Shown: piece by piece, positions 4,297 to 63,770 of the stretch
Layout of the letters: each line of letters begins with the position of its first letter
Numbering within the stretch: position 1 is the stretch's first letter
Virus record (IMG/VR): IMGVR_UViG_3300045988_159115
From: a virus
DNA: 64,000 bases
Direction: 5' to 3' (one strand)
Translations under genes and position numbers: made by a program
Notes under the pieces: generated by a model
Told to the model about the DNA's origin: nothing
What the model saw: the letters and a program-made list of their open reading frames with translations, nothing else
Databases searched by the model: none

Positions 4297-5100
4297 ATGG
4301 CAGAAGAATATAGTAAGCTATACCTCAAAGATAATTACCTCAATAAAGGAATTTCCATTTTAACTGGAAAGACGATTATTGAGTATGACTTAAAATCAGC
4401 AAATACTAGCCTGTGCTCTGAATACCATCTTTTACCACAGGATCAGATTGAAAAAATATCGGCTCTACCAAGAAGTAAACGAGTGGTGAAGATTGGTAAG
4501 CTGTGTAGAAAAAATAAAGAGTTTAATGAAGGATTAAAGAAAGCATTCGTTGACATTCGTAGAAGATTCTTTGAAGCAAATAATATCCAAGATGAAGATA
4601 TTCTTGCGATCAAGAAAGATGCAATCTTTTGCCTTCGGAAATGCAAGGTAAATGAATTTGGCCCATGCCTATTCAGACCGAAAAATGTCTATAGCTCTTA
4701 TCTCTATTTACCACCACTGGAGCTCTACTACAAAGGCTCATATTTGCCTAGCAAAGAACTACTTGCCGTGAAGGGAATCTCTGATGAGACTCTACATCTT
4801 CACGAAGATTACATGCTCACATTTTTCAAACAACTTTTCAGACATATTGAGGAAGGAAAACAACACAACATTTTTCGATATCTTTCAGATTTTACGACAG
4901 CGTATAAGCTGAAACAGCTAGAACCTGGGTACTATCGAGAATTCAACCAGAATAGTCTAATGATTGATGAAGGTGGAGAAGTCACGTACGATGATGAGAC
5001 TTTCATACCATATGAAGGATCGGAGAAATCAGCTCATCTAAATATCGACTATAACTTCTCTAAGGTGATAATTCCTCTCCTCAATATTCTGATATACTGA
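4297..5100 (+). CDS. hypothetical protein (AT-rich codon usage)
   Basis: Track ORF 4213-5100 begins inside the upstream terminator. AAAAGGAGG SD plus ATG 4297 (MAEEYSKLYLK) is the credible start. Class B motif at 4265. Confidence 0.7.
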   Translation: MAEEYSKLYLKDNYLNKGISILTGKTIIEYDLKSANTSLCSEYHLLPQDQIEKISALPRSKRVVKIGKLCRKNKEFNEGLKKAFVDIRRRFFEANNIQDEDILAIKKDAIFCLRKCKVNEFGPCLFRPKNVYSSYLYLPPLELYYKGSYLPSKELLAVKGISDETLHLHEDYMLTFFKQLFRHIEEGKQHNIFRYLSDFTTAYKLKQLEPGYYREFNQNSLMIDEGGEVTYDDETFIPYEGSEKSAHLNIDYNFSKVIIPLLNILIY

Positions 5101-11601: not shown

Positions 11602-11611
11602 ATATATTATA
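11602..11611 (+). promoter_or_regulatory. class A motif ATATATTATA (candidate early-type promoter)
   Basis: Exact 10-mer, just after terminator 11552-11597 and 67 nt upstream of the tubulin ATG 11679. Confidence 0.6.
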
Positions 11612-33657: not shown

Positions 33658-33667
33658 ATATATTATA
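33658..33667 (+). promoter_or_regulatory. class A motif ATATATTATA
   Basis: Exact 10-mer; 133 nt upstream of ATG 33801. The leader contains an imperfect hairpin at about 33683-33741. Confidence 0.55.
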
Positions 33668-34610: not shown

Positions 34611-36392
34611 ATGCTCAAATATATTGGAGAATACGTGTCCGACTTTGAGAAAGAACTTAATCGGCCTCTGATGACAAAAGAAGCTGATCTTCCTCTGGTC
34701 GAGTATATCAAGGATGTCTGGCGTTCTTTGGAGATCGTCAAGAACATCAAGATTCTGAGCTTCGAGTGGAATGACAACGAAGCGACGATCGACATCAATA
34801 ATCATATCTTCAAGCGCGAGAAAAAGAAGCGCAAGAAGGATCGCTATAACTACAAGTTCATCAATGATGATCGTTGTGGTTGCCTGACAGTATATGTCGA
34901 GATTACTGTCAAAGAAAATGATAGCCGGAATCCGGATGAACCGAAGATCCATAAGAAGATCATCAAGAAGCAGATGCTGATTCCTATTCAGGATGAGGAT
35001 GGGTTCTTCTATATCCGTGGCAAGCGCTATTATATGATTTATCAGCTCGTTGATAAATCTACATACACTTCGAATAACGCTGTTACTCTGAAGTCTCTGA
35101 TGCCTATCTGCGTGAAGCGCAATGGCATTAAGACAGACGAGATCGTTCGAAGTGAAAACACCGGTAAGGATGTAAACGGAATGCAGTATAACATTCCCGT
35201 TTATAACGTCTTCGTCTTCCGTAAGGAAATTCCCATCATGCTGTTCTATCTTGCAAACGGATGGGACTGGGCAATGTGCTATCTGGAAGTCGATAATGTC
35301 ATTCGTCTGGTGAAGAACCTCGATGATGCTAATTTCGAGAAGAATCTGTATTTCCAGATTTCCAGTCATTGCTTCATCGAGGCAAACAAGGAGATGTTCC
35401 TGAAGTACCCTTATATCCAGTCTGTGGTTGGTGGTCTTCTGACGATTTCCAATTCCAGAACTACGATGGATGATTTCCATGACCGTACGGTTTGGATCAA
35501 GGCGCTCTCAAACAACAACACCGTTGAGAAGGGTGAAGACATTCTGGTGTTCTTTAACCGTCTGATGGATGTTACCACTCGTAAGATTCTGAAGCTCAAC
35601 GATTACGAGAAGAATGACATCTATGCAATCCTTCGTTGGATGATGCAGAATTTCGGCACCCTCCGTATGAAGGATAACATGAGTCTTGAGAATAAGCGTC
35701 TTCGTTGCAATGAGTATATTGCATCGCTGCTGACTCTGGACTTCTCTTCTCGACTCAATTCTGTGATTACTCTTGGTAACAAGGCAACCATGGATAACTT
35801 CACAAACATGTTCCGCTTCACGGGTGAGATTCTGATCCAGAAGATGCATTCTTCTGGTATTCTCCGGTTCAATGATAATATGAATGATATGGACTTCTTC
35901 TCGAAGTTCAAGTATACTATCAAAGGACCTCATTCCATGGGCGGAAAGAATTCCAACAACATCTCGATTCGCTACCGTGGCTCTCATCCGAGCTTCCTTG
36001 GTAATATTGACCTTTTGGTTTGTGGTAACTCTGACCCTGGTACTTCCGGTGTCTTGAGTCCGTTTGGTAAAATCAAGGGCTTCTATTTCAACGATGAGAA
36101 TGAGACTGATGCGTTCCGGTTCGATTATGCAAAGGATTTGGAGCGTGTCCTCACGGAAGAGAACTTTGAGTATATCAAAATCAACTGTGCTACTAAGGAG
36201 GAGTATTATGCTCTTCTGAATAAGTTGGCAGACTTTAACGAGAATGCTATTAAGATCAATGGTACGTCTCGTGAAAAGTACGAAGTTGTTGTTGAGAAAG
36301 AAGACATGACATCTGGTTCTGATTCGGATGAGAAGGAAACTCAGGAAGAAGCTCCAGAGACTATTTCCGACACAACCGAAGATGATTCCTAA
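34611..36392 (+). CDS. multisubunit RNA polymerase beta subunit, N-terminal fragment
   Basis: GFFYIRGKRYYMIYQLVDKS (beta F.ING.ERV..SQL), LENKRLRCNEYIASLL (GNRR.R..GEL), RYRGSHPSFLGNIDLLVCGNSDPGTSGVLSPF (R.VH.SHYGR.CP.ETPEG.N.GL). The protein ends soon afterwards in an acidic tail. Confidence 0.85.
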   Translation: MLKYIGEYVSDFEKELNRPLMTKEADLPLVEYIKDVWRSLEIVKNIKILSFEWNDNEATIDINNHIFKREKKKRKKDRYNYKFINDDRCGCLTVYVEITVKENDSRNPDEPKIHKKIIKKQMLIPIQDEDGFFYIRGKRYYMIYQLVDKSTYTSNNAVTLKSLMPICVKRNGIKTDEIVRSENTGKDVNGMQYNIPVYNVFVFRKEIPIMLFYLANGWDWAMCYLEVDNVIRLVKNLDDANFEKNLYFQISSHCFIEANKEMFLKYPYIQSVVGGLLTISNSRTTMDDFHDRTVWIKALSNNNTVEKGEDILVFFNRLMDVTTRKILKLNDYEKNDIYAILRWMMQNFGTLRMKDNMSLENKRLRCNEYIASLLTLDFSSRLNSVITLGNKATMDNFTNMFRFTGEILIQKMHSSGILRFNDNMNDMDFFSKFKYTIKGPHSMGGKNSNNISIRYRGSHPSFLGNIDLLVCGNSDPGTSGVLSPFGKIKGFYFNDENETDAFRFDYAKDLERVLTEENFEYIKINCATKEEYYALLNKLADFNENAIKINGTSREKYEVVVEKEDMTSGSDSDEKETQEEAPETISDTTEDDS

Positions 36393-37363: not shown

Positions 37364-37378
37364 AAGGATGTGATACCA

Positions 37379-37927
37379 ATGAATCATAGCCTGATCAAGG
37401 CTGGAATGAAAGATAAAAGTCTTGTCTTCAAGAAGAGTGATTCGAATAAAGCAATTCGTACCGCTCTCGATATGATGGGTGAGACAAAATACATTATCAT
37501 TTGCATGGAAGAAATTACAGAACTGCTGGAAGTCATCGGTGATAACATTGATGGCACTGGGTGCTATATCCACACCGTTGAAGAGATTGCTGACGTAGCA
37601 TGTTGCTGTGATATTCTCCAGGTCATTTTCGATATAAGATCGAAGGAGCTGGCAAAGCCTGAGAAGTGCAAGAAGAAGAGAGCAAACTTGAAAGCGCATT
37701 CTCTTTTGTGCCAGTCCCATATGATCCTTTCTAAATACCTCCGTCACGCAGATCATATAGATCTGGATGATTTTAGAGAGGTTAAGATCATCCCGTGTAT
37801 CAACATGATGGCAAGTGCCGTAGAAATGCTGAAGAATGCATATGGGATTAAAGATAGCGAGATTAAGAAACTGCGTGCGATCAAGCTTGATCGTATGAAG
37901 AAGCGCATTGAGAACAACGACCTGTAA
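37379..37927 (+). CDS. MazG-like all-alpha nucleotide pyrophosphohydrolase (tentative)
   Basis: Track ORF 37370-37927; AAAAGGA SD plus ATG 37379. Paired acidic helices CMEEITELLEV and VEEIADVACC resemble the ExxE/ExxD metal motifs of MazG/dimeric dUTPase-type enzymes. Confidence 0.45.
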   Translation: MNHSLIKAGMKDKSLVFKKSDSNKAIRTALDMMGETKYIIICMEEITELLEVIGDNIDGTGCYIHTVEEIADVACCCDILQVIFDIRSKELAKPEKCKKKRANLKAHSLLCQSHMILSKYLRHADHIDLDDFREVKIIPCINMMASAVEMLKNAYGIKDSEIKKLRAIKLDRMKKRIENNDL

Positions 37928-38258: not shown

Positions 38259-38304
38259 AAAAGGTAGCTACTCTATATTGGATTACAGAGTAGCTACCTA
38301 ATTT
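38259..38304. terminator. bidirectional hairpin at the 3' end of the Rad50-like gene
   Basis: AGGTAGCTACTCT / AGAGTAGCTACCT, flanked by AAAA and TTTT. Confidence 0.7.
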
Positions 38305-40910
38305 TAGCTTTTTTCGATAGGAATATAAGATGCGAGTTCTGCGTTAGAAGAAGTTCTGTTTCGAGTATCTACGATGTCAACAGGATATGCGTTAAACATG
38401 TCGTTGTGAGAGATAACGAATACCTGCTCAGCATGAATCATATCAATTTGCATCTCCAAGACATGTAAAAACTTCTCACGATTGGATATATCGAGAGTGG
38501 CATCGATCTCATCAAGAAGCATGATATTATACTTCGAGATAGATTTGTAAGTGAGTGCAAATGAGAGTGCTAGAGAGATAAAGCTTCGCTCACCCTGAGA
38601 AGCATAAATCACATCTTTTACAGTGGTTCCTTTTGTACTATAAGGAATTCCAAATTCATCAGCCGTGATTTCAAAATCTTCCAGATGAAGATCTCCGTCA
38701 TATACGACATCAAGTAGTTGATTCGCAATATCTTTGATGTCTTTTAAATATGCTTGGATGAAAATAAGAGGAATTCCTTCTCGACTAGAAAGAGCACGAG
38801 CAAGATATTCAAGATCCGTAAACTTGGAACTGAGTTCATCAAGATCTTTTTTATACCTCTTATAATTCTCGATACGGAACTCATTGTCTTGGTGAGTTTT
38901 ACTCATCTTATTCTTACGGAACTGGAGATCATTGAGAACTGATGTTTTCTCACGAATCTGAAGAGATAACTGAGATGCAAGGGTAAGTTTTGATTTGAGA
39001 TCATTAAATTCAGTCTCAACTTCATCCTCATGCTCCATTGCAACTACCATATCTTCATAATCAGATACGGAAGCTTCTTTTTCTGCAATCTCTCTATTGA
39101 GAGAATTGATCGTTTCTTTGACTTCATCAAGTTGTCCCATAAGAGTTGTACGAGAGTTGATGAGCTCTTCCAGTTTATTCTGGAAATACTCAATATTGCT
39201 ATTTGCTTTCTTATATTGAGCAAGCATAGATTTCTGACGGTTGAGTTCTTCGAGATCAGCATCCTGAAGTTCATCATCTGTGATGAGTCCAAGCTCATGG
39301 AAGATAATATCCTTATCATAAATCCATTCCATATTACAAATATGGGTAAGGACTGTACTCATCATGAACTGGTCTTTGATACACTCAGGCATCTTCTCAA
39401 AGATATCATGATAATCTCTCAGATATTTGAGGACTGTCTGGATGTTATTATAGGCCATTTTTGTATAAGCCAAGAACGTCTCATCTTCAATGACCTTGTC
39501 TGGGGCTTGTGTTGCGTACTCATAGATTCTCTGATAGAAGTCATAAACTCTGCATCCAGACGGATTCTTACAGTCAGGACCTAAGAGACCAATATCTTTG
39601 CTGATTTCAGCATAGACTTGCTCACAGAGAGATTGCATTCGGTTCCGTTTAATTTTCTCTCTATTCTCTCTGGTATATTTCTCAATATCCGTTTTTGTGT
39701 GGAAGAAGGATACAGCTTTCTGAATTGGTCCTTTACCAAGCTCATATGTCGACAGCAGGATATCCATGCATTTATCAAGCATCTTGATAAGGTCTTCCAT
39801 TTCTGCTTTAGAACATGGACGAACATATCCGGCGATTCCACTTTCTTTTGCTCTTCTCCGAATCGTTTCTCTAAGAAGCTCAATATTTGCTTCCATGTCT
39901 TTGACGTTTTGATCATCCTCAATACGAGCGATTTCACGTCTGATGGAATCAATTTCATTTGCGATAGAATCCAGTTGATTCAGAATTCCAGTTCGTGTAA
40001 TGACGTTTGTATCAAGAGAAGATTTTGCTTTCAGAATAGCAATCTTAGCTTCTTCAATCATAGACTTCAGGGTGCTAATGCTAATCTTAATTTCAGATGC
40101 TCTTGCTAGTGCTTTCTGAATGTGCTTTAGTTCTTTTTCTTTCTCTTGAATCCGGTCTCTCATTGCTGGAATATCTCCACAGTCATTGAGTTGATACTGG
40201 AGAACGGAGAGTTCACTATTCACTTTCTCAATCTTTGCTGTGAGATCCTCAATTTGATGCTGCAGACTTTTTTGAGCCTTTTTGAGTTCTCCCAAATCAT
40301 CCACTTGAAGTCGACGAATTAGGTCTGAAGTATGATTGATTTGGATATTGACTTTATTCTTATCTGCCATAATTTTCTTATGGTAAGAAAGATAAATGTC
40401 AGCTTCACTGATAATCTTACCAGTGAAGTTTTTTCGTTCCTGTCTCTTCATATCAATGAAATTTGTGACATTGCTACCAAGACGAGTAAGCTTCATATAA
40501 TCTTGCTCAAGTCCAAGTTCCTTTTCCACAATTTCTTTGAAAGAAGTGACATTCCCGTTTTCGTTCAATTCTACACCATTTTTCTGGATATAGCTTTTGA
40601 TAATATGCTTATCACTATTTCTGGTATAGAAATGCTGTATGACGTATAAATCGTCACAATCGGAGATATGGATTTCTTTATATCCATTTTCTCTTGGAAC
40701 GATAATTGGGTTATCGCTGCGTACATCCATGTTGCCATTTGTAGGGAATGGATGTAAGCAACTTAAAATGCTAGTCTTACCAGACCCATTTGGTCCAGTA
40801 AGCAATACGACATTATTATTAGACTTACTGAAATCAATCTCAATCGTTTCCGTATTGAATGCAGTAACGATATTGATGAAATTCGTAAGTTTTAGATACA
40901 AGATTTTCAT
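38304..40910 (-). CDS. Rad50/SbcC-like SMC-family ATPase
   Basis: Walker A LLTGPNGSGKTSIL, long coiled-coil middle, signature ASQGERSFISLALSFAL, Walker B IMLLDEIDATLD, H-loop VFVISHN. Confidence 0.85.
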   Translation of the reverse strand: MKILYLKLTNFINIVTAFNTETIEIDFSKSNNNVVLLTGPNGSGKTSILSCLHPFPTNGNMDVRSDNPIIVPRENGYKEIHISDCDDLYVIQHFYTRNSDKHIIKSYIQKNGVELNENGNVTSFKEIVEKELGLEQDYMKLTRLGSNVTNFIDMKRQERKNFTGKIISEADIYLSYHKKIMADKNKVNIQINHTSDLIRRLQVDDLGELKKAQKSLQHQIEDLTAKIEKVNSELSVLQYQLNDCGDIPAMRDRIQEKEKELKHIQKALARASEIKISISTLKSMIEEAKIAILKAKSSLDTNVITRTGILNQLDSIANEIDSIRREIARIEDDQNVKDMEANIELLRETIRRRAKESGIAGYVRPCSKAEMEDLIKMLDKCMDILLSTYELGKGPIQKAVSFFHTKTDIEKYTRENREKIKRNRMQSLCEQVYAEISKDIGLLGPDCKNPSGCRVYDFYQRIYEYATQAPDKVIEDETFLAYTKMAYNNIQTVLKYLRDYHDIFEKMPECIKDQFMMSTVLTHICNMEWIYDKDIIFHELGLITDDELQDADLEELNRQKSMLAQYKKANSNIEYFQNKLEELINSRTTLMGQLDEVKETINSLNREIAEKEASVSDYEDMVVAMEHEDEVETEFNDLKSKLTLASQLSLQIREKTSVLNDLQFRKNKMSKTHQDNEFRIENYKRYKKDLDELSSKFTDLEYLARALSSREGIPLIFIQAYLKDIKDIANQLLDVVYDGDLHLEDFEITADEFGIPYSTKGTTVKDVIYASQGERSFISLALSFALTYKSISKYNIMLLDEIDATLDISNREKFLHVLEMQIDMIHAEQVFVISHNDMFNAYPVDIVDTRNRTSSNAELASYIPIEKS

Positions 40911-40948: not shown

Positions 40949-41310
40949 TTTTAGGTGAATAACATGTTAGTAACTCCTTGACTGGATTGAACTACGAAGA
41001 TGTTCTTAATCAGTATGGATTTAATAGCTATAGATTTTTCTTTGGAACGAGTAATGTGGTTACGTCAGAAATATCTTTGATATGAAAACGGGACTTTTCA
41101 TCTTCATTGTACCTCCTAAGAATATAGTGGAAAACGTTTGCGCTCTGGTGATGTATCATAACAATTTTCGTGTATATGAACTTCCGGCGGATATGAGCAT
41201 TCTTCCTTCTTGACCTCATGGTCAAAAGCTATATAAAGTCCATCCTGTACTCCGTTGCCGATATCTCACGGATGGAAGGTGGAAGAGATATTGGGCGGTT
41301 TATATATACA

Positions 41311-41358
41311 AAGAAGACGCTATTATGTAATTGGAAAGGTTACATAATAGCGTCTTCT
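41311..41358 (-). terminator. hairpin terminator of the RNAP operon (minus strand)
   Basis: GAAGACGCTATTATGTAA / TTACATAATAGCGTCTTC. Confidence 0.7.
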
Positions 41359-41365
41359 GCTGTCG

Positions 41366-42652
41366 TTATGACAGATGATAGATTTCCTTGATGAGATTAT
41401 TGATATAATCCACATTAATCTGGATGATGATTTTGTACGTGTAGTACGTACTTTGATGATGAAACTTCAGAGTGAGGGTATTAAAGTCGAATGAGTAATC
41501 CTTATCAGGAGTCATCAGACGGCCCTGCTTCCGAACTTTCATCTTGAAGAAGTCCGTTGTCGGAATTCCTCGTTCAAAGTGGAAGTTGAGAACTTTCTTC
41601 AGACTATCATTGAAGAGAGTGCTAAGATCAACTTCATCATCCATCTGTTCCAGCCTACAAGACGGAGATGCATACAAAGTCCATCCAAGAGGAAGATTCA
41701 CATCATCTTCTGTCAGTACATCTGTGAAAATCGGAACGATGGTATTTCCACTATCGTCACAAGTAACGATACTATTTTCTTTGATATCGTCACTAAAGAT
41801 ATAGTAGAAGCCTGTCGAATAGAATTCACAGCGCATACTGAAATTGATCTTATAGGAATCACCAACTTGGTTTACCTTATCGCCTTCGTCAACATTGAAG
41901 TTTGTGATAATCGTGTCGATATTGACTGGATAGTACCGATAAAATTCTTCATGTCCAGTTGCTCCTTCCAACTTGTAAGTGATAGGAGTAACGGATGTAG
42001 AATTCAGATGCTTCAAGAACTTTGCTGTACTTCCATCTTCATCTCGCATCGGAACTTTGATCAGTTCGGAATACTTTGCAAGAAGATCAGGCGGAATATA
42101 ACTTTCAAGACATGTCTGGAGATTGAAAGGAATCTCATATCTCACTGAGTTCTTGAAGTAGTTCGCCCAGTTGATTTGCTGAATCATCGTATTGAAGATC
42201 AAGATGACATCGAAATTCAATACGCTACGATTCATTTGATACTTAATTGCAGTACGAGAATTCCGATCCCAAATGAAATCTTGTAAATTAGTACCGCCTC
42301 GCATCATATAGAGGTCACCCTGACGCTCAATGAGAGGAGTTCCACGAAGGAATCTACTGTCATCATCCCAGTCAATACGGGGACGGATAACAAACATGGG
42401 AGGCTGCTTCTTTAAGAACTCTTTCGGAGTACTTCTCATTTGAGCATGAGCGATCTTACTATTGACATGAATTGTCTTGAAGAAATCTTTCGGAAAAAGA
42501 TTGATGAGCCAATTCTGAACGAATGCTGTCACGTTTCCATAGGTATGAGCAGCTGATGTTTGCGCTTGGATGTAATGCATCGGATGCCCATAGATAAGAT
42601 CATGACGCTCGTCTTCTGTCAGCTCATAGTCGTGAAGTCGTTTTGTATCCAT
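41366..42652 (-). CDS. hypothetical 428-aa protein co-transcribed with RNA polymerase fragments
   Basis: Track ORF; GAGGTG SD 31 nt after the beta-prime stop. I recognised no motif. Terminator 41311-41358 follows. Confidence 0.7.
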   Translation of the reverse strand: MDTKRLHDYELTEDERHDLIYGHPMHYIQAQTSAAHTYGNVTAFVQNWLINLFPKDFFKTIHVNSKIAHAQMRSTPKEFLKKQPPMFVIRPRIDWDDDSRFLRGTPLIERQGDLYMMRGGTNLQDFIWDRNSRTAIKYQMNRSVLNFDVILIFNTMIQQINWANYFKNSVRYEIPFNLQTCLESYIPPDLLAKYSELIKVPMRDEDGSTAKFLKHLNSTSVTPITYKLEGATGHEEFYRYYPVNIDTIITNFNVDEGDKVNQVGDSYKINFSMRCEFYSTGFYYIFSDDIKENSIVTCDDSGNTIVPIFTDVLTEDDVNLPLGWTLYASPSCRLEQMDDEVDLSTLFNDSLKKVLNFHFERGIPTTDFFKMKVRKQGRLMTPDKDYSFDFNTLTLKFHHQSTYYTYKIIIQINVDYINNLIKEIYHLS

Positions 42653-42683
42653 ACATATTCACCTCGCTTTCTAATGAGAATGA

Positions 42684-43904
42684 TTACAAGAGCATAGTAT
42701 CCGGATCAATCTGATTCGATTTGATGTTAGCTGTATGGAATTTCTTCATGCCCATCTTCAGAAGCTTTGTGGAAATCTGAGGGCAACCGAGGCCAATATT
42801 CAGGTTATCCAGCTTGTAGTTCAGCTCTCCTGCACAGATATTGCAGATATGCTTTCCCTTGCAATACATGGGGCTACGCAGTTTGATAGGCTTACCGACA
42901 TACTTACCGATAATCTCAGGAGTCAAGCAGACATACTTACCATTTTCTACGATGTACCGATACTCAAAGTCACGAGTATCTTTCGGAGTCATGATGTAGG
43001 AAATGGTCTTTTTTGTCCCGCAATCACTGCCATGCTCATCAAGAACTTCGCCCTGCATTGCTGCCAGAAGCTGTTTTGTCAGGTAGCCAGACTCAGCAGT
43101 ACCGACTGCTTTCGGGTATGCACCAGAAACGACGGATGTGCCGAAAGAAGGAATGTCTTGCTTTGTGATACCATCCATGAAAGACGATCTGACGATTTCA
43201 TATTCGCCAGTAATATTATTCATGGTAGCACCCTTATACAACATCATATTCTTGTAGTTACCGAAGTTACCACGAGCACCAGAATTATAAAGGTCCATAC
43301 CGGGGTCATCTGCAAGAAGTTTCTTTGCCTCACTGGTGAGTTCTTTCTCGATTTTCTCGGAAGTAACGATGTCACCCTCATTGAGCTTGTCATCATATTT
43401 CTTGAAAAGCTCTTCTTTTCGCTTAGCAATCTCAGGAGGGCATGCAATTGTCTTCTCACTGAAAGAAGTAGTGATAACAGAGTTCAGCTGCATTCCAAGA
43501 GTATCACGGTAATCGTAATAGTCATAGAAATCATTGATGCTGATCTTATCATCAATCAGAGCTTTTGCAAGTTGACTTTCGATAGATTCATATTTACCCT
43601 GAGTAACAGGCTCATTCACATACCCGAGAACACTCTGGAATCCAAAGCGTTCGATGAGGTACTTATTGAAGATGAACCTACCGACGGTTGTCTTCGTTTT
43701 CTCTTTTACGAAATACTCAGAAGGCTCCAATGTCATTTCGTCCCAAGTACTGAACTTAGATTTCTTAACTCCACTGAAAGCGTTCTGAGCATCTGTAGTA
43801 TCTCCGAAGAGATAGACGAGCTTTGTGAAAGTAAGATCATCCGGTTTTAATTCCAGAAGTTCTTTCTTTTCTGCTTCTGTGATTTTTCGAGCAGGTCTAG
43901 GCAT
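42684..43904 (-). CDS. multisubunit RNA polymerase beta-prime subunit fragment (regions E-G: bridge helix to first trigger-loop helix)
   Basis: TTVGRFIFNKYL; LYNSGARGNFGNYKNMMLYKG (SGARG...GMRG); bridge helix GTAESGYLTKQLLAAMQ (TA.SGYLTRRLVD); LRSPMYCKGKHICNICAG; GLGCPQISTKLLKMGMKKFHTA (AAQSIGEP.TQ.T..TFH.GG). Confidence 0.85.
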   Translation of the reverse strand: MPRPARKITEAEKKELLELKPDDLTFTKLVYLFGDTTDAQNAFSGVKKSKFSTWDEMTLEPSEYFVKEKTKTTVGRFIFNKYLIERFGFQSVLGYVNEPVTQGKYESIESQLAKALIDDKISINDFYDYYDYRDTLGMQLNSVITTSFSEKTIACPPEIAKRKEELFKKYDDKLNEGDIVTSEKIEKELTSEAKKLLADDPGMDLYNSGARGNFGNYKNMMLYKGATMNNITGEYEIVRSSFMDGITKQDIPSFGTSVVSGAYPKAVGTAESGYLTKQLLAAMQGEVLDEHGSDCGTKKTISYIMTPKDTRDFEYRYIVENGKYVCLTPEIIGKYVGKPIKLRSPMYCKGKHICNICAGELNYKLDNLNIGLGCPQISTKLLKMGMKKFHTANIKSNQIDPDTMLL

Positions 43905-43906
43905 CC

Positions 43907-44635
43907 TTAACCCTCCTCTTTCAGAGTCTTATTAATCATCAGGCCACGAGTGACCAGATCGGATTTAAGACCCATACCAAGCAGGTATACATCAACTGTA
44001 TTCAGAGTAGTCTTATTCTCAGGAGAAGATTCCATATCTTCCAGAGAGACATAACCCTTCGTATTGATTGCAGTATACATCTGCTGCTTCATAACCATAT
44101 CATCGGCACGAGGGCCATTGAGTTCCTTCAACGTATCCTTCATATTCATGCTGATGAGCATGGAATTTTCAAGGTCAGATTCACGGCCATTCTTATCAGC
44201 GCCACTAACCTGACCAGTAAGAGAAGAACGTGCATCTGCTGTGGTAGACAGACCGTTCTTCTTTGCAACCGTTTGCTGTGTACGTTTCACATGGCAGTAT
44301 CCAACAGGCACTGCTTCTTTGGAAACGATGATATTATTCTTATCCATTGTATAGTGAGGGAATGCAATTCTCTCAAACAGAGGAACGTTAAGTACCTTTG
44401 CTGCATCTTCAATATCAGGAACTTTCAGATCAATCTGATAGTCACAGACATTCAGAATCAGATACTCGTTCGGGTTTGCAAAAAATTCTTTGAAGAATTT
44501 ATCAAACTGAGCATCCGTCATGGTATCAAAGATGGATTTGTAGTGCTTCGTATTTGCGCCGGTCTTATCAAGAGCATTGAATGTCTTATAGATAAGATCT
44601 TCCATCTTCTTTCGTTTTTGCGGAGTTAACGCCAT
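43907..44635 (-). CDS. multisubunit RNA polymerase beta subunit, C-terminal fragment
   Basis: Track ORF 43907-44686; AAAGGAG SD plus ATG 44635. VGYCHVKRTQQTVAKKNGLSTTADARSSLTGQ (GY.Y.LKL.H.V.DK.HARS.GP..TQQP) and GRESDLENSMLISMNMKDTLKELNGPRADD (GGQR.GEME.WAL.AYGA..L.E.L..KSDD). Confidence 0.7.
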   Translation of the reverse strand: MALTPQKRKKMEDLIYKTFNALDKTGANTKHYKSIFDTMTDAQFDKFFKEFFANPNEYLILNVCDYQIDLKVPDIEDAAKVLNVPLFERIAFPHYTMDKNNIIVSKEAVPVGYCHVKRTQQTVAKKNGLSTTADARSSLTGQVSGADKNGRESDLENSMLISMNMKDTLKELNGPRADDMVMKQQMYTAINTKGYVSLEDMESSPENKTTLNTVDVYLLGMGLKSDLVTRGLMINKTLKEEG

Positions 44636-44679
44636 AACGATGTATCTCCTTTCGTTTAATGTGTAATAGACTAGGCTGC

Positions 44680-44691
44680 TTACCATTCTGT
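44680..44691 (-). promoter_or_regulatory. class B motif ACA-N6-TAA
   Basis: Reverse complement CTGAAAACAGAATGGTAA; 44 nt upstream of the RNAP beta-C ATG 44635. It lies in the loop of hairpin 44665-44724. Confidence 0.6.
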
Positions 44692-44732
44692 TTTCAGGAT
44701 GAAATTAAGCTGCCTAGTCTTATTTTATAATG

Positions 44733-44742
44733 ATATATTATA
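44733..44742 (+). promoter_or_regulatory. class A motif ATATATTATA
   Basis: Exact 10-mer in GTCTTATTTTATAATGATATATTATA, an extended context shared with site 50424. Upstream of ATG 44842. Confidence 0.6.
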
Positions 44743-44841
44743 TAGGTATAGAAAGTCCATAAATATAAAAAGAAAGGTTGTAAAAATACGTGGCTTATCT
44801 GAAAATACATGAAAAATAAAAGAATAGGAGTTGTAGAGACA

Positions 44842-45696
44842 ATGCTTTCAAGAAGACGTAGTTTAGGTGGCGCATATCCTTTGGCATCACAGGACCTCGT
44901 TTCGCTCAAGAGCATCATCATCAAAAATGAAATCACTATGGATTATATCAATTCGTGGTTTGATACTATGCTTGATGTGTTGAGTGATGCTGTGCACTAT
45001 CCAGCTAGACAGATACACCTCGGCAGTATGATTTATGATATCGCCGAAAAGAGCAAAATCGAGTACGGACTTTTCAGATACTCGTATAAAGAATCCATCA
45101 TAAAGTTTTCCATTAATAAAGAGGACCATGAGATTGCATTAGATTTGTATCTCTTTGATGATGTTCTTCCGGCTGCCGCTGGATGCGATAGAAGCGTTAT
45201 CCATTTCATTCTTTATAACGATACCAGTTTTCGTAATATGTGGTTTGCTGTAAAGAAAAATACATACATCTACTGGAATAGTGTCATACCCAATAAGGAT
45301 GCCGGAATACCTAAAGGTGAAGTCTTTGGTATTATCGTTCGTGAGATTGAAGACTTCTTGGCTGCGATGCTCTTTACTGTGATCCGGGGCAAGCCTATTC
45401 AGCGTGAATCCCGCACTACTTCGTTGCCTGTGAAGGAGAATACTCATAAGGAAACGAAACCACATTCTAGCCGTAACGACAATAGCCCGATTATCATTGA
45501 TGCATTGGATAAAGCCACTATCCGTAGAAATATCAACGTAAGTCGCGTTGGTGAAAAGCATCATGAAATGCGGTATCGTCATATCGTTCACGGACACTAT
45601 CGTCATTATAAAGACGGTAGAACCGTTTGGGTGTCCTCCTATGTGCGGTGCAAAAACAAGGGCTCGAAGTCGGAAGTAATTGGAGGTGACGTATAA
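44842..45696 (+). CDS. hypothetical protein with basic His/Arg-rich C-terminus
   Basis: Track ORF 44809-45696; TAGGAG SD favours ATG 44842. C-terminus HHEMRYRHIVHGHYRHYKDGRTVWVSSYVR. Class A motif at 44733. Confidence 0.65.
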   Translation: MLSRRRSLGGAYPLASQDLVSLKSIIIKNEITMDYINSWFDTMLDVLSDAVHYPARQIHLGSMIYDIAEKSKIEYGLFRYSYKESIIKFSINKEDHEIALDLYLFDDVLPAAAGCDRSVIHFILYNDTSFRNMWFAVKKNTYIYWNSVIPNKDAGIPKGEVFGIIVREIEDFLAAMLFTVIRGKPIQRESRTTSLPVKENTHKETKPHSSRNDNSPIIIDALDKATIRRNINVSRVGEKHHEMRYRHIVHGHYRHYKDGRTVWVSSYVRCKNKGSKSEVIGGDV

Positions 45697-50373: not shown

Positions 50374-50414
50374 AATAAGACCAGATACTATTGATTTCTA
50401 GTATCTGGTCTTAT
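50374..50414. terminator. 18-bp perfect hairpin in a divergent promoter region (insulator/terminator-like)
   Basis: AAATAAGACCAGATACTA / TAGTATCTGGTCTTATTT. It sits between class B site 50351 (minus strand) and class A site 50424 (plus strand). Confidence 0.5.
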
Positions 50415-50711: not shown

Positions 50712-50722
50712 TTAGTATTAGG

Positions 50723-50765
50723 AGAAAGTTGGTTCTTATATGGCTTCTTACAACTTTCTTTTTTT
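50723..50765 (+). terminator. intrinsic terminator
   Basis: AGAAAGTTG / CAACTTTCT stem followed by TTTTTT. Confidence 0.65.
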
Positions 50766-56866: not shown

Positions 56867-56876
56867 TATAATATAT
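56867..56876 (-). promoter_or_regulatory. class A motif ATATATTATA (minus strand)
   Basis: The reverse complement reads TGATTATATATTATAATTATAGTG; 56 nt upstream of minus-strand ATG 56810. Confidence 0.6.
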
Positions 56877-63760: not shown

Positions 63761-63770
63761 TATAATATAT
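63761..63770 (-). promoter_or_regulatory. class A motif ATATATTATA (minus strand)
   Basis: The reverse complement reads TAATTATATATTATAATAGTG; 76 nt upstream of minus-strand ATG 63684. Confidence 0.6.

Follow-up and report, generated by a model that had tools for sequence, protein, structure and literature searches.

The question raised by three adjacent minus-strand genes at positions 44635 to 41366 of IMG/VR virus record IMGVR_UViG_3300045988_159115 is whether they encode part of a single, unusually fragmented RNA polymerase (RNAP) with a new subunit, or something closer to the two-polymerase system of phages such as AR9 and PhiKZ. An earlier note on this 64,000-nucleotide (nt) stretch of DNA, called the window below, had joined two of the three products to a beta N-terminal fragment encoded 7 kb away, and had proposed the third, a protein of 428 amino acids (aa), as either an extra RNAP subunit or the missing end of beta'. 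The reading reached here, at a probability of roughly 85%, is that the window comes from an AR9-like phage with two multisubunit RNAPs, that positions 44635 to 41366 are a late unit encoding the C-beta and Mid-beta' subunits of a virion RNAP (vRNAP) together with a tail terminator, and that the beta N-terminal piece comes from the other, nonvirion enzyme (nvRNAP). All four open reading frames (ORFs) named in the earlier note were found where it had placed them, at 44686/44635 to 43907, 43904 to 42684, and 42652 to 41366 on the minus strand and at 34611 to 36392 on the plus strand. They were assigned as follows.

34611 to 36392, plus strand: predicted nvRNAP N-beta, 593 aa (PDB 7S00 chain c; AR9 gp105)
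43907 to 44635, minus strand: predicted vRNAP C-beta, 242 aa, free-standing (phrog_3233; RNAP domain of AR9 gp078)
42684 to 43904, minus strand: predicted vRNAP Mid-beta', 406 aa, with beta' regions E/F, the bridge helix, and the first trigger-loop helix (phrog_2962; AR9 gp264)
41366 to 42652, minus strand: candidate tail terminator (neck) protein, 428 aa, PhiKZ gp98-like (Foldseek, hhalign, phrog_21946)

Source of the window

When all window ORFs were mapped against the full AR9 genome, orthologs were found at 25 to 40% amino acid identity, among them genes for gyrase A and B, UvsX, RecD, ligase, SbcC, DNA polymerase, a helicase, a prohead protease, and virion proteins. Searches with tblastn placed the window in a lineage with AR9, PBS1, Staphylococcus jumbo phages, LPJP1, and phiR1-37, and a megablast search of phage genomes with the locus gave zero nucleotide-level matches among deposited phages. 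By sequence comparison, the source is an uncultured AR9/PBS1/phiR1-37-like jumbo phage.

Two polymerases rather than one split enzyme

The vRNAP core of jumbo phages is built from five or more polypeptides, N-, Mid-, and C-beta' plus N- and C-beta, with C-beta' being a small virion protein of the SPN3US gp244 family, and the virion and nonvirion enzymes have beta split at differing sites (PMC7598289). In AR9, the annotated virion set comprises gp189 (N-beta), the C-terminal domain of gp078 (C-beta), gp145 (N-beta'), and gp264, and the nonvirion set comprises gp105 (N-beta), gp089 (C-beta), gp270 (N-beta'), gp154 (C-beta'), and gp226. These annotations allow each fragment in the window to be placed with one enzyme or the other.

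The 593-aa protein matched the beta N-terminal subunit of the AR9 nvRNAP (PDB 7S00 chain c) with an E value of 9e-52, phrog_2943 in PHROGs at 6e-24, and AR9 gp105, annotated as "non-virion RNAP subunit," by tblastn at 1e-54. It is, on these matches, the predicted ortholog of gp105 and the N-beta of a separate nvRNAP. In AR9, the 406-aa ORF matched gp264 best and the 242-aa ORF matched the C-terminal domain of gp078 best, and both of these are in the virion set. Thus, the description of 34611 to 36392 as a beta N-terminal piece stands, while its pairing with the C-beta at 43907 as two halves of one beta does not, since the best AR9 matches of the two fall in different polymerases. The same distinction applies to the central beta region (GDK/RHG.KG), which the earlier note could not recognize: at the level of motifs this was a correct observation, but it is not a gap in one enzyme, because the N-terminal piece and the C-terminal piece come from separate enzymes that split beta at differing sites.

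The smaller of the two virion-type proteins, encoded by 43907 to 44635, matched phrog_3233 ("RNA polymerase beta subunit") at 2e-39 and, by tblastn, was 39.8% identical to the C terminus of Goe21_00920 and 37% identical to the RNAP domain of AR9 gp078, which is annotated as "virion RNAP subunit." A profile of its family run against PDB placed residues 106 to 190 on E. coli beta residues 1222 to 1308, spanning the HARS, GEME, and KSDD motifs, in 23 of the 24 best hits. The beta C-terminal motifs read earlier in this ORF are thereby borne out by phrog_3233 and by a consistent, if weak, placement on E. coli beta. An hhalign comparison of the C-beta profile with AR9 gp089 gave no match. The "hydrolase" label among PHROGs matches of the 242-aa protein arises because, in Bacillus phages, an HD hydrolase forms a single protein with the gp078 RNAP domain. 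The longest version of the ORF, starting at an ATG at 44686 (259 aa), was rejected as the gene start: homologs are uniformly 241 to 242 aa long, which indicates 44635 as the real start, and 44686 lies upstream of the candidate transcription start site (TSS) described below and inside an inverted repeat.

The 406-aa protein matched phrog_2962 at 4.6e-73 and was 37.6% identical over 94% of its length to AR9 gp264, an annotated vRNAP subunit. Against PDB it aligned with bacterial beta' (M. tuberculosis residues 664 to 897) at an E value of 1.6e-8, with a bridge helix reading TAESGYLTKQL compared to TADSGYLTRRL in M. tuberculosis, and the fragment terminates at KFHTA. The protein also aligned to the N terminus of cyanobacterial and plastid beta'', and Pfam gave only sub-threshold matches to Rpb1 domains 4 and 5. 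The extent assigned to it earlier, from beta' region E to the first trigger-loop helix, agrees with both the alignment and the KFHTA end; the fragment stops at this point because jumbo-phage vRNAPs divide beta' into N, Mid, and C polypeptides. Together, the two proteins are predicted orthologs of the AR9 vRNAP subunits gp078 (C-terminal domain) and gp264, and the PhiKZ/AR9-type fragmentation suspected by the earlier note is upheld by this orthology and by the published vRNAP architecture (PMC7598289).

The N-beta, N-beta', and C-beta' of the virion set were not found within the 64-kb window, and the boundary of Mid-beta' fits the five-polypeptide scheme. The NADFDGD-bearing N-terminal part of beta' is indeed absent from the window, as had been stated, with no window ORF matching AR9 gp145 or gp270. 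Searches of the window by tblastn with SPN3US gp240 to gp245, including gp243 and gp244, likewise found no match. In SPN3US itself, positions 212357 to 220745 hold a vRNAP cluster of gp240, gp241, gp242, and gp243, then gp244 (C-beta'). The gp243 protein (491 aa, phrog_3841) is uncharacterized, embedded among vRNAP genes, and unrelated to the 428-aa ORF.

The 428-aa protein resembles a tail terminator

The only PHROGs match of the 428-aa ORF was phrog_21946 (3e-24), a family of unknown function. The family is large, with over 370 clusters at 90% identity and at least 519 at 50% identity on contigs of up to ~258 kb, and it is wholly unannotated; contigs of about that length carry near-identical genes. 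One copy per record was found in 21 of 21 AR9-clade records. Searches of PDB sequences by phmmer and hmmsearch with the ORF and its family returned only noise, with no match to beta'.

A clearer signal came from structure prediction. An AlphaFold2 model built with 43 homologs (mean predicted local distance difference test [pLDDT], 75.6; predicted template modeling score [pTM], 0.58) was compared to PDB with Foldseek, and the top match was chain w of 9XPS ("neck structure of phage PhiKZ"), with an E value of 4e-15 over 462 columns. Next came the T4 gp15 tail terminator (9MKB, 4HUH, and 4HUD) and neck chains of E217 and Pa193, followed by P1, Pam3, the A-1(L) gp7 terminator, T5 p142, DT57C, Sf14, Chi, and lambda gpU. 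In all, the terminator or neck chains recovered numbered more than 15 and came from unrelated phages, all nonphage folds had probabilities below 0.2, and no RNAP chain appeared. Chain w is PHIKZ098 (gp98, 542 aa), with the stopper, gp99 (469 aa), present as a separate chain. PhiKZ gp98 is a hexameric terminator, described as "larger" than in other myophages, whose ring caps the last layers of the tube and sheath and joins the tail to the neck (PMC13250141). The Goslar terminator, gp51, is a homolog of gp98.

Homology to gp98 was also detected between profiles. A broadened profile of the 428-aa family (A3, 59 sequences including AR9 gp251, phiR1-37 g272, and LPJP1) aligned by hhalign to a profile of the gp98 family (A4, 32 sequences) over 296 columns, with a probability of 84.7% and an E value of 6.7e-6. 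The LPJP1 member of phrog_21946 directly matched the gp98 family, phrog_3289, at 1.8e-7. In BFVD, family members from PBS1 and phiR1-37 were found at ~1e-30, then a continuum of 500- to 690-aa proteins of PhiKZ-like phages, as well as entries that bear the name "tail sheath stabilizer and completion protein gp15." In phiR1-37, the homolog g272 carries the annotation "phage structural protein," and structural genes g271 and g270 come next; no functional statement on g272 or gp251 was found in the literature. On fold and profile evidence, the 428-aa protein is assigned with moderate confidence as a gp98-like tail terminator, and it would form a hexamer in the virion.

One deposited label in this protein group deserves mention. 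Chain jj of PDB 36za, "Collar Protein gp126" (492 aa), matches gp98 (4e-30) as strongly as does the Goslar chain named "Tail Terminator protein gp51," and the entry may contain a labeling inconsistency.

Gene order around the terminator homolog

In relatives at 99% identity, the order of the 242-, 406-, and 428-aa genes followed by SbcC is retained. At a locus with 64% identity (L020), two opposite-strand ORFs of 62 and 63 aa (4525 to 4909) lie between the RNAP pair and the 427-aa gene, breaking the operon. Among relatives at 50 to 60% identity the upstream neighbor is unrelated (Thy1, guanylate kinase, and others), so that adjacency to vRNAP genes is lost at 60% identity and below. In AR9 and LPJP1, the terminator homolog and the vRNAP genes are ~7 kb apart. 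The proximity of g274, labeled "RpoC," to g272 in phiR1-37 was considered as a recurrence of the vRNAP adjacency and rejected, as g274 is an nvRNAP beta' N-terminal subunit (AR9 gp270 ortholog) and an annotated terminator lies between the two. The gene directly downstream, encoding an SbcC-like ATPase (38304 to 40910), keeps its position in relatives down to 50% identity (loci L014, L020, and L022), and this adjacency is thus conserved more widely than that to RNAP. The SbcC gene has an AACA-N6-TA motif of its own at 40993 to 41004.

A putative late transcription unit

Four noncoding elements flank the three genes.

41308 to 41363, minus strand: terminator-like hairpin with a 19-bp core stem at 41312 to 41358 and a U-rich 3' side (RNA fold)
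44668 to 44720, minus strand: inverted repeat in the interval that separates the operon from the divergent gene, with an AACA motif at its apex (free energy, −27 kcal/mol; z, −5.56)
44681 to 44692, minus strand: candidate AR9-type late (nvRNAP) promoter AACAGAATGGTA, a match to the AR9 late consensus
44733 to 44742, plus strand: early-promoter-like motif TTTnnAT[T/G]ATATATTATA, pointing away from the operon and toward the ORF at 44809 to 45696

Within the unit, the stop codon of C-beta abuts the start codon of Mid-beta' with 0 nt between them, an arrangement consistent with translational coupling. The junction between Mid-beta' and the 428-aa gene is 31 nt long, has no significant structure (z, 0.02), and carries a GAGGTG Shine-Dalgarno sequence, as had been noted from the sequence. 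The hairpin begins 3 nt past the stop codon of the 428-aa ORF and has a free energy of −28.9 kcal/mol (z, −9.45), with none of 200 shuffled sequences as stable; a general terminator scan missed it. A scan for sigma-70 promoters performed at chance level, and scans of the window for tRNAs and Rfam families found none.

The AR9 late consensus is AACA-N6-TA/G (PMC5312081), and AACAGAATGGTA at 44692 to 44681 is the only sense-strand late-type match upstream of the operon. It would imply a TSS at 44681, 46 nt upstream of the ATG at 44635, a position that agrees with the 241- to 242-aa homologs and argues against a start at 44686. Across the window, the late-type motif is about fivefold denser in noncoding DNA and precedes 10 of 54 genes, compared to 4.8 ± 2.0 in shuffles.

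The early-promoter-like motif, TTTnnAT[T/G]ATATATTATA, is highly conserved and resembles the AR9 early consensus AAATATATATTAT (PMC5312081). All 11 copies in the window are intergenic, and nearly all lie 5 to 153 nt upstream of a same-strand ORF; they start at 11602, 24044, 26429, 30643, 33658, 44733, 46040, 50424, and 50770 on the plus strand and occupy 56868 to 56876 and 63762 to 63770 on the minus strand. A 20-mer at this motif occurs 4 times, with 0 occurrences expected. These copies are probably the early (vRNAP) promoter set of the phage. The copy at 33658 heads the operon that includes the nvRNAP N-beta gene, and the vRNAP operon is not headed by an early-type motif. The AT-rich 20-mer upstream of the vRNAP operon was rejected as its promoter, because the orientation that is conserved (ATATATTATA) runs toward the divergent gene.

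Strong inverted repeats lie beside early-promoter-like motifs at 44668 to 44720, ~50377 to 50412, and ~50720 to 50760. Read on the plus strand, they run from hairpin to ATTTTAT to promoter, resembling a terminator-promoter cassette, yet there is no upstream plus-strand gene.

Considered together, the three minus-strand genes at 44635 to 41366 probably make up a single late transcription unit that encodes virion components and ends in a strong hairpin. The homologies, the fold match, the gene junctions, and the hairpin were observed directly; the virion location of the products, their late expression, the TSS, their cotranscription, and hexamer formation are inferred.

Weighing the assignments

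Several observations weigh against the two-polymerase and tail terminator explanation as stated. For C-beta, each match of the family profile to bacterial beta is nonsignificant on its own (E, 0.29), and the AlphaFold2 model is too poor (pLDDT, 54.6) for structural comparison, its Foldseek search giving no significant hit and being uninformative. The terminator assignment relies on a model of intermediate quality, given the pLDDT and pTM above, and the model reaches template modeling (TM) scores of no more than 0.45 with solved terminators. The hhalign probability for gp98 homology is below 90%, and when a narrow alignment (A1) was run by hhalign against the gp98 sequence alone, there was no match; profiles of greater breadth were needed for both families. 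None of the 59 family members scanned matched a relevant Pfam family, including that of T4 gp15. AR9 gp251 is labeled "putative membrane protein" rather than "virion protein," and virion presence is documented only for the phiR1-37 homolog. Finally, the late motif is short and its enrichment modest (z, ~2.6).

The alternative that survives best, although we consider it unlikely, is that the 428-aa protein has another place in the neck or in tail completion, with a fold of the same class, for example as a stopper or a sheath-stabilizing collar, and is not the terminator itself. Terminator-like folds are found in several neck proteins, the TM-scores to individual terminators are modest, and gp98 is matched equally strongly by the Goslar terminator and by the chain deposited as "Collar Protein gp126." However, no match is better or more complete than that to gp98 (462 columns; E, 4e-15), the terminator in the PhiKZ atlas, in which the stopper gp99 is separate, and the secondary matches (T4 gp15, T5 p142, lambda gpU, and A-1(L) gp7) are all bona fide terminators.

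Lower still, and by our estimate improbable, is an accessory or fifth vRNAP subunit acting in promoter specificity or assembly, coexpressed and copackaged with C-beta and Mid-beta'. Such a subunit would account for the shared apparent operon, with its 31-nt gap and no terminator between the genes, and would equally predict a phiR1-37 homolog in virions; it would also be in keeping with a 2020 review (PMC7598289), by whose time no vRNAP had yet been purified and the mechanism of promoter recognition by this enzyme was not understood. Yet both fold and profile homology lead to tail terminators and not to any transcription protein, and the vRNAP adjacency is not conserved, being absent in AR9, LPJP1, and phiR1-37. 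The 428-aa ORF has no similarity to AR9 gp226, its best AR9 match being gp251; no window ORF matches gp226, and the fold search returned no RNAP-associated chain, so the suggested analogy to a promoter-specificity fifth subunit does not hold. In Goslar, the vRNAP subunits listed from virion mass spectrometry number exactly five, and gp51, the protein of gp98 type, is located in the neck map. The earlier note had proposed that the 428-aa ORF might be a new RNAP subunit unless it proved to be a virion structural protein, and the latter is where homology and the phiR1-37 g272 annotation point.

Slightly less probable again is that the terminator-like protein is cotranscribed with the two subunits for a second, polymerase-linked role, for example, docking or gating vRNAP at the neck for exit with the DNA. 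If such a role were true, this lineage would be a natural pointer to the ejection of a multisubunit RNAP.

The proposal that the 428-aa protein is a highly diverged and enlarged C-terminal piece of beta' (the rest of the trigger loop and region H) is very improbable, for although a position directly downstream of Mid-beta' fits collinearity, the true C-beta' (SPN3US gp244, 240 aa, phrog_2926) is distinct, the 428-aa ORF shows no similarity to that family and matches phrog_21946 only, tblastn of gp244 against the window was null, and neither sequence and profile searches of PDB nor Foldseek gave a beta' or RNAP match. None of the neighboring unknown ORFs tested matched gp244 or phrog_2926 either.

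A working model and its implications

With the tail terminator retained as the preferred assignment, the following sequence of events can be proposed according to AR9/PhiKZ logic. C-beta and Mid-beta' would assemble with N-beta, N-beta', and the small C-beta' encoded elsewhere in the genome, and the assembled vRNAP would be packaged, injected, and used to transcribe early genes, including those for nvRNAP. The nvRNAP would then transcribe vRNAP and structural genes late, and the terminator gene would be expressed at this stage with the two packaged RNAP subunits. A neck protein is probably grouped with these subunits because of shared late timing and a loose gene order among these phages; nothing points to a role of the 428-aa protein in transcription.

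These results remove an attractive but wrong lead, that of a new RNAP subunit and an unusually fragmented single polymerase, and confirm the standard AR9/PhiKZ two-polymerase system in an abundant uncultured metagenomic clade. They also give phrog_21946, which includes AR9 gp251, PBS1 gp144, phiR1-37 g272, and homologs in Staphylococcus and Listeria jumbo phages, a proposed function as the tail terminator of the AR9 clade. The early-like and late-type motifs suggest that AR9 regulatory logic extends to these phages, with nvRNAP genes early and vRNAP genes late.

Elsewhere in the window, a small ORF at 37370 to 37927 matched a MazG-like nucleoside triphosphate pyrophosphohydrolase family (phrog_2245, 1.6e-10). 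Its product could concern nucleotide pool control, if the phage DNA is modified (dU) as in its relatives AR9 and phiR1-37.

Comparison with known systems

The closest structural counterparts of the 428-aa protein are PhiKZ gp98 and Goslar gp51 of the Chimalliviridae, with the same predicted fold over nearly the whole length (Foldseek E, 4e-15). For PhiKZ gp98 there is also profile-level homology over ~300 residues, and it and the 428-aa protein are both larger than classical terminators. They differ in size (542 aa in PhiKZ, 428 aa here), lack pairwise sequence similarity, and fall into different families (phrog_3289 and phrog_21946); the phage analyzed here is of the AR9/uracil-DNA lineage and not of the Chimalliviridae. 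The classical terminators T4 gp15, T5 p142, and lambda gpU have the core fold in common with the 428-aa protein (Foldseek E, 1e-4 to 7e-2; probability, up to 1.00), but they are much smaller (130 to 270 aa) and show no sequence-level match to it. Direct full-length kin are AR9 gp251, PBS1 gp144, phiR1-37 g272, and LPJP1 00086, all in phrog_21946, with ~20% identity and a single copy per genome. Members of this family are annotated as "hypothetical" or "putative membrane protein," and the genes of these four, unlike the one in the window, do not adjoin vRNAP genes.

Compared to the AR9 nvRNAP, the N-beta in the window carries an additional C-terminal extension of ~100 aa (residues ~491 to 593) that is absent from gp105 and 7S00 chain c. 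This extra tail is strongly acidic (…SGSDSDEKETQEEAPETISDTTEDDS).

For the virion enzyme, the window pair and AR9 gp264 and gp078 (C-terminal domain) are orthologous at 37 to 40% identity with identical split points, and both Mid-beta' proteins terminate after the first trigger-loop helix. The AR9 gp078 gene differs from its window counterpart, which has no introns and no N-terminal HD phosphohydrolase domain. In the Bacillus phages, C-beta is made as a fusion with an HD hydrolase, which is removed proteolytically, whereas the window C-beta is encoded without this fusion. The genes for gp264 and gp078 are ~155 kb apart in AR9, while their counterparts in the window are adjacent and apparently translationally coupled.

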